Assembly (NCBI GenBank): GCA_963743795.1
Contig: CAVUQZ010000004.1
Coordinates: 339,686 to 403,685 of the forward strand
Reading direction: 5' to 3'
DNA from: an uncultured Chloroflexia bacterium
GTDB lineage: Bacteria; Chloroflexota; Limnocylindria; Limnocylindrales; CSP1-4
DNA: 64,000 nucleotides
Part shown: piece after piece, positions 31,566 through 45,635 of the stretch
Position numbering within the stretch: the stretch's first letter is position 1
Layout: each line of letters begins with the position of its first letter
Notes under the pieces: generated by a model
Told to the model about the DNA's origin: nothing
The model's database searches: none
Seen by the model: only the letters and a program-made list of their open reading frames with translations
Made by a program: the position numbers and the translations under genes

Positions 31566-31591
31566 AGAACGTCCGTTCCATCTGATACACT
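31566..31591 (+). promoter_or_regulatory. LexA (Cheo-type) SOS box with extended -10 upstream of ruvB
   Basis: GAAC-GTCC-GTTC (31567-31578) followed by TGaTACACT (31583-31591). Confidence 0.7.
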
Positions 31592-42227: not shown

Positions 42228-43553
<1,326 letters not shown>

Positions 43554-43615
43554 ACCGGCCTCGAGAGGCGCCCGGTGGATCGCACGTACGCGCTCGGAGC
43601 CACGGGCGGGGAGTA

Positions 43616-43763
43616 TAGAACGTCCGTTCTACGTTTACTCGCCGCAATCGGGCCATCGCCCCTACCCGTGTTGGCAGCACGTGGACAACTCCCAAAAGGA
43701 AGGCCCCCGTTTTCGAAAGTGGTGGATAAGCCACTTCCTGCGGCATCTGGCCGAGCCTATTGT
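43616..43763 (+). promoter_or_regulatory. Upstream control region of ncRNA A (SOS box, two DnaA-box-like sites, -10)
   Basis: TAGAACGTCCGTTCTA (43616-43631), GTGGACAAC (43681), GTGGATAAG (43722) and TATTGT (43758). The same spacing recurs at 44983-45129. Confidence 0.65.
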
Positions 43764-43770
43764 TCCTTCT

Positions 43771-44046
43771 GCCCGGAGGGGCCAGCGAGATCGTCACCGG
43801 CTCAGCGGTTTCGACGGAAACGGTGTAGCGATCTACCTGAAGGTCCAGGAGCCCGCAAGGGTTTCTGAGCCGGAAGGCCGGTCGTGAACCGCGGAAGTCG
43901 GAATGTAGAGGGTTGGTGGCAGTCCCGGCCAGTGGCCGGAGCGCAGGTCGCCGTTTGAGCGAGGAGTTTTCGGACCCCTTGTTCGCGGAGACCAAAGCGA
44001 CCGACACACGCGAGACCGCAGTCCGATCGAACAGGTTCCTTCGGGC
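43771..44046 (+). ncRNA. Putative structured ncRNA A (~276 nt), family not recognised
   Basis: 5' GCCCGGAGGGGCC pairs with 3' GGTTCCTTCGGGC. Multiple internal hairpins, including GCAA and TTCG loops. No credible ORF. Confidence 0.7.
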
Positions 44047-44206
44047 GCTTTCGTGTGTCCGGCTGGGCCAGCGTCCGGCAGCTGGGCCAGGCGCGCGCGC
44101 GCCGGCGCCGGCCCCCGGGAGCCGTGGCGCATCGAGATCCGGCCTGGCGGGGTAGGGGACCCAGGAGGTATCCTCGGCCGCGACCCACCCTGCAAGCAGG
44201 AAGTCG

Positions 44207-44965
44207 ATGCCGCACGTCAGCCCCAGCGTCTGGATCATCGTGCCGACGTACAACGAGCGGGAGAACGTCGGCCCGATCACCAACGCGATCCTGGGAGTCG
44301 TCCCCGAAGCCCACGTCCTGATCGTCGACGATGGATCTCCGGATGGCACGGGCGAGCTGGCCGACGATATGGCCGCCCGCAATCCCGCGATCGCGGTGCT
44401 GCACCGTCAGGCCAAGCAGGGCCTGGGGCGGGCCTATGTGGCGGCGTTCAAGGAGCTGCTCGCCGGCGACGCTGACATAGTCGTCCAGATCGATGCCGAC
44501 TTCAGCCACCCGGTGAGATATCTGCCCTCGCTGCTGGAACCGCTTCGCGCCGGCTCGGCGGACCTGGTCCTCGGGTCCCGCTACGTCAAAGGGGGCCAGA
44601 TCCCGCGCTGGAAGCTGCTCCGCCGTCTCGTCAGCCGCGGCGGCAGCGTCTTCGCCGGGGTCGTGCTCCTGCTCCCGTTCCGCGATCTCACCGGCGGCTT
44701 CAAGGCCTGGCGCGCGGATGCCCTCCGGGCGATCGACCTAGACCGGCTACATGCCGGTGGGTACGCCTTCCAGATCGAGACGACCTTCAAGGCCAGACTG
44801 GCCGGTGCGCGCATCGTGGAGGTCCCGATTACGTTCGAGGAACGCCGGGCGGGACAGTCGAAGATGAGCATGTCGATCTTCATGGAGGCCTTCCGGCTCG
44901 TGCTGGCGCTGCGGGTAACGAACCTTCGACGACGGCGCCGGGCGCTCCCTCGGCCAGCCGCCTGA
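44207..44965 (+). CDS. Polyprenol monophosphomannose synthase (GT2, Ppm1/DPM1-like)
   Basis: IVPTYNEREN, VDDGSPDGTG, QIDADFSH, GSRY, DLTGGFKAWR, GYAFQIE and EVPITFEERRAGQSKMS. Confidence 0.92.
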   Translation: MPHVSPSVWIIVPTYNERENVGPITNAILGVVPEAHVLIVDDGSPDGTGELADDMAARNPAIAVLHRQAKQGLGRAYVAAFKELLAGDADIVVQIDADFSHPVRYLPSLLEPLRAGSADLVLGSRYVKGGQIPRWKLLRRLVSRGGSVFAGVVLLLPFRDLTGGFKAWRADALRAIDLDRLHAGGYAFQIETTFKARLAGARIVEVPITFEERRAGQSKMSMSIFMEAFRLVLALRVTNLRRRRRALPRPAA

Positions 44966-44982
44966 CGGCCCCGGCGCGGACA

Positions 44983-45129
44983 GCACGTCCGTTCTGAAGC
45001 CCTTCGACGCGCCGAACGCTCGCGCAGGGCGACGTGTGTGCGAACCGTGGGAAAGGCCCTCCGACACACGCACGAGTTTCCAAAGACGTGGATAAGGCCG
45101 TTGGCGCCCAACCGCCGGACGGCTAGATT
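44983..45129 (+). promoter_or_regulatory. Upstream control region of ncRNA B (paralogous to 43616-43763)
   Basis: GCACGTCCGTTC (44983), GTGGGAAAG (45047), GTGGATAAG (45088) and TAGATT (45124). Confidence 0.65.
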
Positions 45130-45136
45130 CTCCTCA

Positions 45137-45218
45137 GCCCGGAGGGGCCACGAACAACCGAACGACTCGACCGATTCTCGGATCGGCCGAACGATGCGGG
45201 GTCGCGGTTCCTTCGGGC
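45137..45218 (+). ncRNA. Putative ncRNA B (~82 nt), same terminal helix as ncRNA A
   Basis: Identical 5' GCCCGGAGGGGCCA and 3' GGTTCCTTCGGGCG ends; internal hairpin CCGATT-CTCG-GATCGG. Confidence 0.65.
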
Positions 45219-45236
45219 GTTTCCGTATCCGTCACG

Positions 45237-45277
45237 CGCGGCCCGTCGCAGCCCAGCCGCCGGCGGGCCGCTTGCTG
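45237..45277 (+). terminator. Possible intrinsic terminator after ncRNA B
   Basis: GCGGCCCGTCG...CGGCGGGCCGC stem followed by TTGCTGT (weak U tract). Confidence 0.35.
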
Positions 45278-45371
45278 TCCGTCCGCCTCTAGTCGACCGA
45301 GGACGGGAACACGCACCAACCCAGCTCACGAGCCGCGAATCCACGTATGGTTGGGCCTGCTGGAGAAACGC

Positions 45372-45413
45372 TAGCCTAGTCCTCTTGACAGGCTATGCCT
45401 AGTCGGCTAGGCT
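45372..45413 (+). promoter_or_regulatory. hicAB promoter with palindromic operator
   Basis: TTGACA (45385), 17 nt spacer, TAGGCT (45408). Palindrome GCCTAG-TCGG-CTAGGC (45397-45412) overlaps the -10. Confidence 0.75.
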
Positions 45414-45419
45414 GCGGTC

Positions 45420-45635
45420 GTGAAGCGCCACGAGCTCCTACGGCGGATCGCGAAAGCGGCCCGTGCGAAAGGGGTGGTGTGGCAACTTGAGCGGCAAGGC
45501 GCCGGTCACGAGATCTGGCGATGTGGCGAGACGCCGATGCCATTGCCGCGGCACAAGGAGATCGGCGACAGGCTGGCCGAGGCGGTATTCGCGGGGCTCG
45601 AGATCGAACTCGGGAAAGACTGGTGGCGCAGATGA
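45420..45635 (+). CDS. Type II toxin, HicA family
   Basis: MKRHELLRRI...RQGAGHEIW...LPRHKEI: HicA G.H and P.H motifs. Confidence 0.85.
   Translation: MKRHELLRRIAKAARAKGVVWQLERQGAGHEIWRCGETPMPLPRHKEIGDRLAEAVFAGLEIELGKDWWRR

Follow-up and report, generated by a model that had tools for sequence, protein, structure and literature searches.

The stretch of DNA described here (64,000 nucleotides (nt) of contig CAVUQZ010000004.1, hereafter the window) belongs to a metagenome-assembled genome of an uncultured member of the Limnocylindria in the phylum Chloroflexota, which comprises 11 contigs and 2.87 Mb, has a G+C content of 68.5%, and is 81% complete. The gene order in the part of interest is miaA, hflX, RNA1, a family 2 glycosyltransferase gene (ppm1-like), and RNA2. 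RNA1 and RNA2 are members of an undescribed structured small-RNA (sRNA) family of soil and sediment Chloroflexota, and it is highly probable that this family is real, new, and expressed. The features of the locus are as follows (window positions).

43618-43629, no strand: LexA-type SOS box GAACGTCCGTTC, at -153 of RNA1, read from the sequence
43681-43689, + strand: distal DnaA-box-like element GTGGACAAC, at -90 of RNA1, read from the sequence
43722-43730, + strand: predicted promoter-proximal DnaA box GTGGATAAG, at -49 to -41 of RNA1
43758-43763, + strand: -10 hexamer TATTGT, 7 nt 5' of the RNA1 start G
43771-44055, + strand: RNA1, class A, about 285 nt, start G at 43771
43771-43783 and 44034-44046, + strand: closing-helix strands of RNA1 in the predicted fold
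43771-43783, + strand: 5' end 13-mer GCCCGGAGGGGCC of RNA1, read from the sequence
44034-44047, + strand: 3' 14-mer GGTTCCTTCGGGCG of RNA1, followed by CTTTCGTGTG
44047-44055, + strand: U-rich tail of RNA1
44207-44965, + strand: glycosyltransferase family 2 gene, ppm1-like (Pfam PF00535, E = 6.6e-26), between RNA1 and RNA2
44983-44994, no strand: LexA-type box with one base changed, GCACGTCCGTTC, at -154 of RNA2
45047-45055, + strand: degenerate distal box GTGGGAAAG, at -90 of RNA2, with two mismatches to GTGGAYAA
45088-45096, + strand: predicted promoter-proximal DnaA box GTGGATAAG, at -49 to -41 of RNA2
45124-45129, + strand: -10 hexamer TAGATT, 7 nt 5' of the RNA2 start G
45137-45227, + strand: RNA2, class B, about 90 nt, start G at 45137
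45137-45149 and 45206-45218, + strand: closing-helix strands of RNA2 in the predicted fold
45137-45149, + strand: 5' end of RNA2, the same 13-mer GCCCGGAGGGGCC as in RNA1
45206-45219, + strand: 3' end of RNA2, the same 14-mer GGTTCCTTCGGGCG as in RNA1, followed by TTTCCGTAT
45219-45227, + strand: U-rich tail of RNA2

A preliminary description of this DNA had reported a palindrome, elements at -90 and at -49 to -41, and a -10 hexamer upstream of both genes, and every one of these was found at the positions and offsets given there. The terminal motifs GCCCGGAGGGGCC and GGTTCCTTCGGGCG occur exactly twice each in the 64-kb window, on the + strand and in the correct order. In both RNAs the ends pair as a 13-bp helix with three G-U pairs, and this closing helix, which had likewise been proposed, lies within the minimum-free-energy folds of RNA1 (z = -4.34) and RNA2 (z = -3.59; 200 shuffles each). 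Approximately 250 nt separate the helix strands in RNA1 and 56 nt in RNA2, and the interiors show no likeness to each other, in agreement with the earlier view that common ends enclose different cargo. That description had not recognised the family, and the Rfam check it suggested returned none either: Rfam 15 has no match at gathering score in the whole window, and a relaxed search gave only a chance microRNA match (E = 3.4) on the opposite strand inside ppm1. Rfam also contained no relevant match for the further paralogues, for the long members, or for the forms from f3 and f4, two of the five families (f1 to f5) sampled within the class Limnocylindria.

RNA libraries from four studies contain the sequence of RNA1 in the form of short, discrete contigs. 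Four RNA runs from these studies were compared with the stretch 43500-45400, with no DNA run alongside, and each run yielded one contig of 223-264 nt that lies wholly inside RNA1. Three of these contigs match without differences (43779-44014, 43795-44027, and 43792-44014); the fourth (43783-44026, depth 120) contains one difference. One contig is preceded at 43783 by what we take to be the end of an Illumina adapter, and one run contains an additional contig of 44 nt with a depth of 2364. All of the long contigs stop short of the helix ends, and no joints of circular forms were seen among them. The other RNA pieces were only 32-34-nt matches at 44233-44266 inside longer unrelated contigs, and these are taken to be a conserved glycosyltransferase stretch from other organisms. 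Otherwise hflX, ppm1, and the spacers had no RNA cover, which carries no weight as a finding. No contig of RNA2 was found in the four RNA runs, and an RNA of about 90 nt is possibly too short for contigs. With respect to sampled words, DNA runs hold 40-54% of 43500-45400 and six RNA runs hold 10-13%; RNA1 makes up 15% of this 1.9-kb stretch.

RNA1 and RNA2, which had been regarded as twins, are in fact two of five paralogous RNA genes in the host genome and part of a family that spans the class. Four of the five were found through the helix ends and one through a loop motif. The three paralogues outside the window are:

C1:81893-81967, - strand: third paralogue, 75 nt, from the helix-end search
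C10:468197-468373, + strand: fourth paralogue, 177 nt, from the helix-end search
C1:316010-316138, - strand: fifth paralogue, 129 nt, recognised by the conserved loop GAGAUCGCAUCAA

Compared with the copies in the window, the helix strands of the other paralogues contain only changes that preserve pairing (G to A opposite U, and C to U opposite G). Only the 129-nt member departs from this, with one A-C mismatch between the strands of its closing helix; a -10 hexamer, TAGAGT, lies seven nt 5' of its start. A genome search for the two-part pattern of helix ends, which the preliminary description had recommended, gave exact matches in 25 of the 36 other genomes searched within the genus and none with a reversed control pattern, a result far outside what chance would give. 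The same pattern was absent from all 24 genomes of a sister family with genomes of 1.0-1.4 Mb. A scan of one genome per prokaryote species revealed at least 119 loci in public genomes; among the matches listed, nearly all are titled Chloroflexota, Chloroflexia, Limnocylindria, or Limnocylindrales, and one Verrucomicrobiia. The 162 loci collected represent 143 distinct RNAs. These fall into class C, the hairpin class (55 sequences of 73-79 nt), a mixed class (47 sequences of 79-316 nt), class B (18 sequences of 81-83 nt), class A (eight sequences of 272-276 nt), and class D (about 176-180 nt), and the remaining cargo classes are several singletons.

A covariance model built on class C and run over 151 genomes of the class, the host genome included, matched all 44 genomes of f1 and all 50 of f4. 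It found nothing in the six genomes of f2 (about 1.1 Mb each), the 49 of f3, and the one of f5. The model did not detect the form present in f3, an RNA of about 177 nt in which the class C hairpin occurs twice; this form was recovered through its promoter. A pattern for this double hairpin matched 33 of the 49 f3 genomes and the f5 genome, and its two further matches in f1 lack the hairpin motif and look like chance. Thus, the RNA family occurs in four of the five families sampled, with one to four genes per genome of these relatives, and no member was found in the six f2 genomes searched. The f4 RNAs measure 66-76 nt and number two to three per genome. The f4 tally of the covariance model includes three unpublished genomes (G139, G148, and G174), the tally of tandem boxes given below includes G148, and that of the f3 form includes the likewise unpublished G157 and G163; the statements at family level stand without them. 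The alignment obtained from the model search had also drawn in weak antisense matches and did not enter the counts.

Class A was detected by BLAST in three of three genomes of the host's genus and in none of 77 genomes from 48 other genera of its family. In seven genomes of the genus, including the host, it shares contig and strand with class B and is located upstream of it, at a distance of 1.0-1.1 kb in six of them and 2.8 kb in one. Classes A and B are best regarded as young cargos that arose at genus level, and the class C hairpin as the ancestral one. Two further loci may be mentioned here. A long member in another genome (G095:C1:1749054-1749672) has an interior of at least 10 short hairpins, each with a CGCAAG loop, and this string of hairpins resembles multi-site sponge RNAs. 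In one f4 genome, a tRNA gene (locus L207, positions 408-481) lies approximately 40 nt 3' of a family member.

Besides the closing helix, the fold of class C comprises two helices in the interior and a loop of 13 nt in which the positions G-GAU--C-UCAA are invariant in 55 f1 sequences. The corresponding loop in members from f3, f4, and f5 is mostly GAGAUNNCAUCAA, with a few departures. In the MAFFT alignment of class C, 97.6% of the cells are paired and eight pairs show changes on both sides. None of 500 shuffles reached any of five measures, and sliding the partners against each other lowered the pairing to 32-49%. The alignment of eight class A orthologues contains 92 predicted pairs, 13 of them with compensatory changes. 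That of 18 class B orthologues, sampled within one genus only and showing little variation, contains 28 pairs of which two are compensatory. The predicted fold of class D is multi-branched with GCAA-type loops. Together, the covarying interior helices and the RNA1 contigs in four metatranscriptomes indicate that these loci are RNA genes and not chance repeats, which is what the preliminary description had proposed.

Across the family, where interiors range from 45 to more than 300 nt, the 5' strand G(N)CCCGRAGGGGYC of the closing helix pairs with the 3' strand GGUUCCUYCGGG(N)C. The f4 helix (G-UCCCGRAGGRGC.../...GGUUCCUYCGGGR-C) has an extra pair, either U-A or U-G, behind the first G-C, and its pairs 2-12 are standard in all 20 RNAs examined. 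In the f3 helix (GACCCGAGGGGUC.../...GGUCGCUCGGGUC) the extra pair is A-U. The tandem G-U pairs at helix positions 10-11 are never G-C in any sequence examined, and position 10 is A-U in six of the 20 f4 RNAs. A fixed end-to-end helix around exchangeable interiors is an unusual build for an RNA gene. The helix is followed by a conserved U-rich tract: T occurs at 67% (+2), 91% (+3), 92% (+4), and 94% (+8) of the sequences after the helix, in a genome with approximately 16% T, and a C-rich stretch lies 3' of the U-rich tail. A standard terminator scan of the RNA-gene region found no local terminator hairpin on the + strand, so that the closing helix, whose strands are 56-250 nt apart, is the only stem that could act with the U tail. 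The preliminary description had interpreted the common helix as a handle for protein binding or processing. Its combination of a shared helix with different cargo was borne out; a handle is possible and is not needed, because helix and U tail also form the only terminator-like element.

The promoters were compared in a set of 137, each represented by 220 nt of upstream sequence. GTGGATA is found in 102 and GTGGACA in 100 of them, with pile-ups at approximately -50, -85, -95, and -105. When boxes were counted with at most one mismatch to GTGGAYAA, a proximal box started at -58 to -44 in 126 of 137 promoters, and at -52 to -48 in 125; a distal box at -110 to -75 was present in 120. The control counts for proximal and distal boxes were 11 and 2 with the reversed motif and 0 and 7 with the reverse complement, and only three promoters have a box at -220 to -130. 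The boxes all share one orientation, and their arrangement recurs in every cargo class. Successive boxes are spaced 11 nt (27 intervals), 31-33 nt (52), or 41-42 nt (60), which accounts for 139 of 145 intervals and corresponds to one, three, and four helical turns. The distal and proximal boxes of RNA1 lie 41 nt or four turns apart, within the commonest spacing of the family. In 120 of 137 promoters, a -10 element of the form TAnnnT begins between -14 and -12, and the start G follows seven nt after it. A promoter scan detected no consensus -35 in the RNA promoters, whose one conspicuous feature in this region is TT at -37/-36.

GTGGAYAA is complementary to TTRTCCAC, the consensus core of the DnaA box. 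In the host genome the motif shows no overall enrichment (81 sites versus approximately 71 expected). Five clusters of at least two sites within 150 bp exist, with a rough chance estimate of approximately 0.3. They are located as follows:

Cluster 1: the 423-bp dnaA-dnaN spacer, with two GGTGGATAAC boxes, further near-matches, and an AT-rich tract
Cluster 2: upstream of gidB/rsmG
Cluster 3: upstream of a gene read as parA by its Walker motif
Clusters 4 and 5: upstream of RNA1 and upstream of the class D RNA

The boxes of the RNA genes thus represent the same motif as at the host's own replication origin (oriC) in the dnaA-dnaN spacer, and as a rule two or more close matches to it stand near the promoter at conserved positions. 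Box pairs with a spacing of 30-32 nt occur in the host genome only at the class D and gidB loci, and this scarcity reflects that the genus mostly uses 41-42 nt. Tandem pairs 11 nt apart, one to three per genome, were found in 41 of 44 f1 and 39 of 50 f4 genomes and were rare in f3 (4 of 49) and f2 (1 of 6), with four matches of a control pattern in all. Where listed coordinates were compared by eye, without counting, the tandem pair lies approximately 100 nt upstream of a covariance-model match; the single f2 pair, also read by eye, lies just before the putative start of dnaN. The promoters of RNase P RNA and transfer-messenger RNA (tmRNA) in the host genome have no boxes within 160 nt upstream. 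We therefore regard the GTGGAYAA repeats upstream of the RNA genes as predicted DnaA boxes, and control of these promoters by DnaA appears reasonably probable. The preliminary description was right about a positionally conserved promoter architecture; it had left unrecognised that the GTGGAYAA elements carry the DnaA-box motif of the organism's own oriC.

Two other promoters in this genome deserve mention. At gidB/rsmG, a divergent pair of putative DnaA boxes (C1:292771-292804) adjoins a good promoter of the form TTGACG-17 nt-TACTGT, which is followed by a G+C-rich leader of approximately 170 nt without an Rfam match and then by the gene. A near-consensus promoter, TTGACA-17 nt-TAGGCT, lies 3' of RNA2 at approximately 45386-45414, just before the GTG of a frame at 45420. 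The consensus promoter scan did not list it, and its second hexamer agrees with only three of six positions of TATAAT. Its existence indicates that strong sigma-70-type promoters are present in the genome, unlike the weak -35 region of the RNA promoters.

Farther upstream, all seven class A promoters contain GAAC-N4-GTTC with varying N4 at -151 to -153. Of the 17 class B promoters, 12 have a related box, 11 of them at -151 to -154 and one at -164, and in several it is a full GAAC-N4-GTTC sequence. This LexA-type box is confined to classes A and B and thus to 19 of the 137 promoters; it is an exact palindrome at RNA1 and has one base changed at RNA2. The host genome contains 30 GAAC-N4-GTTC palindromes. 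One with A/T-rich flanks lies approximately 40 nt upstream of lexA (Pfam LexA_DNA_bind and Peptidase_S24), and another, also with A/T-rich flanks, directly upstream of a RecA-family gene; at both lexA and recA the palindrome sits between a TTGAC-type -35 and the -10. The SOS-like box of the preliminary description is therefore the same palindrome as at these two genes, and it is kept near -152 in the orthologues of both RNAs. Judging from these predicted LexA boxes, RNA1 and RNA2 probably also respond to DNA damage. The -10-like hexamers that flank the LexA box on both strands are not conserved. Possible roles of the box are to mark another start that damage would induce, or to stop transcripts of hflX and ppm1 from running on.

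Other palindromes of this type occur elsewhere in the genome. Twelve bases identical to the RNA1 box (GAACGTCCGTTC) are found, again with A/T-rich flanks, approximately 170 nt upstream of ftsZ (Pfam Tubulin and FtsZ_C; G000:C4:665216), which hints that cell division may be under SOS control in this organism. A third identical copy of GAACGTCCGTTC lies in the window at 31567-31578 (G000:C4:371252), within a stop-free frame of 513 codons, and may be coding. Two LexA-type boxes 33 nt apart (C10:530734 and 530767) are located just upstream of a minus-strand frame of 102 codons without an assigned family, which could be a small SOS-induced gene.

The balance tips slightly towards the view that the family consists of stable trans-acting RNAs whose closing helix serves as terminator and whose genes are controlled by DnaA, two of them also by LexA. 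The gene unit would comprise two to four phased DnaA boxes in the same orientation, the last one abutting a weak -35. DnaA would oligomerise on these phased boxes and thereby control transcription of the RNA gene. That this effect is activation is a guess, with repression as the alternative. Activation appears most likely in view of the weak core promoter and of the proximal box, whose position is that of class I/II activators. If DnaA does control the promoters, RNA output would follow the amount or the nucleotide state of the replication initiator, and classes A and B would probably respond to damage as well because of the additional LexA box approximately 150 nt upstream. Once the whole RNA has been made, its 5' strand would pair with the 3' strand, and the end-to-end helix together with the U tail would end transcription and lock both ends in a nuclease-resistant stem. 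The interior cargo would carry the function and act in trans. The placement of an RNA family behind predicted DnaA boxes suggests that these bacteria may signal their replication state through RNAs. A bolder version would treat the family as a natural RNA 'chassis', in which a DnaA-gated promoter, supplemented by LexA in two members, was joined to a fixed helix for termination, stabilisation, and perhaps the recruitment of a protein, different cargos were slotted in repeatedly in the course of evolution, and the GAGAUNNCAUCAA hairpin bound DnaA or another replication or cell-cycle factor, with feedback on initiation; this we consider rather unlikely.

Several observations weigh against the view of DnaA-controlled, helix-terminated RNAs acting in trans. 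The RNA1 contigs give no strand, exact ends, or level. The boxes may serve another factor with a DnaA-like specificity; class B promoters have mostly lost the distal box (6 of 17 keep it, and 16 of 17 have the proximal one), and the promoter of the fifth paralogue, a gene that may be regulated differently or be decaying, has no recognisable DnaA boxes. The LexA box of the RNA genes, approximately 140 nt upstream of the -10, is too distant to occlude the DnaA-type promoter, and a consensus scan found no second promoter near it. A terminator stem with strands 56-250 nt apart is kinetically unusual, and the 3' end could result from processing instead. The invariance of the helix in f1 is partly circular because most of the f1 set was collected by a pattern that fixes the helix sequence; independent evidence for the helix comes from the f4 set found by the model and the f3 set found by the promoter. 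Related genomes, moreover, do not count as independent samples. With regard to targets, a search of the host genome for complements of the class C loop gave dozens of matches in coding sequences, none of them informative. The notable match was the antisense strand of the fifth paralogue, which revealed the same loop there.

If the DNA itself were functional, the box arrays would titrate or recharge DnaA in the manner of datA, DARS, or the Bacillus clusters, and the RNAs would be by-products of the adjoining promoters. DnaA-box clusters outside oriC are known in other bacteria, those of the host genome are rare and otherwise mark oriC, gidB, and parA, and the boxes are phased like an array for loading an oligomer. 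This explanation nevertheless has a small probability, since the covarying helices and invariant loops are conserved across families and RNA1 accumulates in four metatranscriptomes. Moreover, the proximal box and the -10 keep a constant distance, within +/-2 nt, in 125 of 137 promoters, which argues for promoter control rather than mere titration. Alternatively, the RNAs might be cis-acting leaders, such as riboswitches or attenuators, with the closing helix as a conditional terminator gating the downstream gene, which would be ppm1 for RNA1. RNA1 does lie 152 nt upstream of ppm1 on the same strand, a downstream frame on the same strand is conserved at 33 of 52 class C loci, and a helix followed by a U tail resembles an expression platform. 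However, one identical helix surrounds unrelated interiors, unlike in ligand-specific leaders, and the downstream genes differ between paralogues and between families. RNA2 is followed by a separate promoter (approximately 45386-45414) before the next frame, the f3 form combines two hairpin copies in one RNA, and the metatranscriptome contigs end inside RNA1, which is a weak hint in the same direction. A role as leaders is thus quite improbable.

The closing helix might also be mainly a protein-binding handle, and the family would then form ribonucleoproteins whose RNA modules are exchangeable, in the way of Y RNAs and Ro. The helix sequence persists even between different families, in contrast to the freely covarying stems of the interior, and the tandem G-U pairs at positions 10-11 are never replaced by G-C, although G-C would strengthen the helix. 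We consider this unlikely, however: the host genome yielded neither a TROVE/Ro protein nor Hfq (81% completeness applies to both), no conserved neighbouring partner gene was found, the f1 sequences were chosen by their helix pattern, and a transcribed region close to the promoter combined with a terminator function could fix the helix sequence as well. Still less probable is that a larger member, of class A or class D, represents the 6S/Ms1-type RNA in this lineage and sequesters RNA polymerase. That niche appears unfilled, as the Rfam 6S model matched none of the 13 genus genomes searched, and one metatranscriptome contains RNA1 in abundance (depth 120, with the short contig at 2364). Yet the model is insensitive, with matches in only 5 of 14 control genomes, and even at E = 10 neither 6S nor Ms1 was matched. 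The predicted folds branch several times instead of forming a rod with a central bubble. Class A occurs in a single genus, in contrast to the broad conservation of 6S-type RNAs. The ends of each RNA also form an imperfect inverted repeat in the DNA, as in a miniature inverted-repeat transposable element (MITE), a possibility that the preliminary description had put forward as an objection to its own proposal should dispersed copies with target-site duplications appear. The genome contains only five copies, and they are syntenic: positions are orthologous across the genus, with class A upstream of class B in seven genomes. No target-site duplication is visible beside either copy in the window, the three G-U pairs make the repeat strand-specific, and the copies have a fixed promoter upstream, a U tail downstream, and covarying interiors. 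A MITE is scarcely conceivable under these circumstances.

The genes surrounding the family offer few clues. In f1, a YbaK-type tRNA_edit gene lies directly upstream of class C on the same strand at 41 of 52 loci (for example at locus L223, 2656-3222, minus strand), and a conserved open frame follows downstream on the same strand at 33 of 52. The linkage with YbaK was not seen in f4, where the neighbours vary by orthologue group and include a beta-CASP nuclease, an extracytoplasmic function (ECF) sigma factor, PMT_2, and a lipoprotein. No conserved partner gene emerged among the f1 and f4 loci examined.

If DnaA control is confirmed, the family would connect riboregulation with the initiation of replication and with the SOS response in a way that is open to direct testing; if the chassis concept should hold, it would form the RNA arm of the circuits for replication initiation and DNA damage. 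Although uncultured, the lineage is common in those metagenomes of soil, peat, and sediment in which this stretch occurs. The signature of promoter plus helix makes members findable by pattern in any Limnocylindria genome, and RNA abundance relative to DNA coverage could mark the replication state in metatranscriptomes. A fixed helix with exchangeable interiors could also inform the design of RNA scaffolds.

Among known systems, the bacterial Y RNAs (YrlA/YrlB) had already been named as an analogy in the preliminary description. They resemble the family in that a genome encodes several small RNAs with a helix of the 5' and 3' ends and variable modules inside, and in their link to stress or DNA damage. 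The analogy fails at the defining partner: Pfam PF05731 (TROVE) has no match in the 81%-complete host genome, and a Deinococcus control was positive. The family further differs from Y RNAs by the absence of an adjoining partner gene, the lack of a match to the Rfam Y-RNA models, the U tail directly after the helix, and the predicted DnaA boxes upstream. A stand-in for the RNA of the signal recognition particle (SRP) was also considered. The host genome has no match to RF00169 or RF01854, and an ordinary small SRP RNA is present in 11 of 12 other genomes of the genus, so that the family does not take its place; genes for RNase P RNA and tmRNA are located elsewhere in the host genome. 6S RNA and Ms1 are, like members of this family, abundant stable RNAs with paired ends, and they differ by their rod-with-bubble architecture and by the missing model match. 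6S RNA was rejected as an identification on the basis of the multi-branched folds and of RF00013, which found nothing in 13 of 13 genus genomes, a result that represents a gap rather than an absence given the sensitivity of this model.

OmrA/OmrB, Qrr1-5, and PrrF1/2 are sets of paralogous sRNAs with a shared promoter architecture, shared terminal sequences, and differing middles under one regulator. Their ends consist of a single-stranded seed and a local terminator hairpin, whereas in the present family the ends pair with each other, interior length varies between 45 and more than 300 nt, and DnaA is the regulator proposed. Small RNAs are also tied to the control of replication and the cell cycle in other bacteria: EcpR1 is said to target the dnaA and gcrA mRNAs, and CcnA is reportedly driven by CtrA. 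As far as their abstracts tell, both EcpR1 of Sinorhizobium (PMC4414408) and CcnA of Caulobacter (PMC8959179) act on cell-cycle regulators, and in this respect they are comparable to the role proposed here. They have no sequence or structural likeness to the family and no shared closing helix, and the abstracts do not mention DnaA boxes. At the level of titles and abstracts, a full-text literature search retrieved nothing on an sRNA family behind DnaA-box arrays or on noncoding RNAs of this lineage.

The closest parallel for the promoters may be found in the established DnaA regulon. DnaA is a known transcription factor for a handful of protein genes, and its boxes occur upstream of weak promoters or as loci of their own, as at sda, dnaA, and the six box clusters of Bacillus and at datA/DARS of E. 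coli. We know of no described case in which a whole family of structured RNAs lies behind phased DnaA-box arrays. Like the known DnaA-controlled promoters, those of the RNA genes have several consensus boxes upstream of a weak promoter, which would couple expression to replication status; unlike the known targets, which are protein genes or noncoding DNA loci, the genes in question encode RNAs. Structured sRNAs as such are a familiar kind of bacterial molecule, and what would be new in the Limnocylindria is the architecture of their genes and the predicted regulator.

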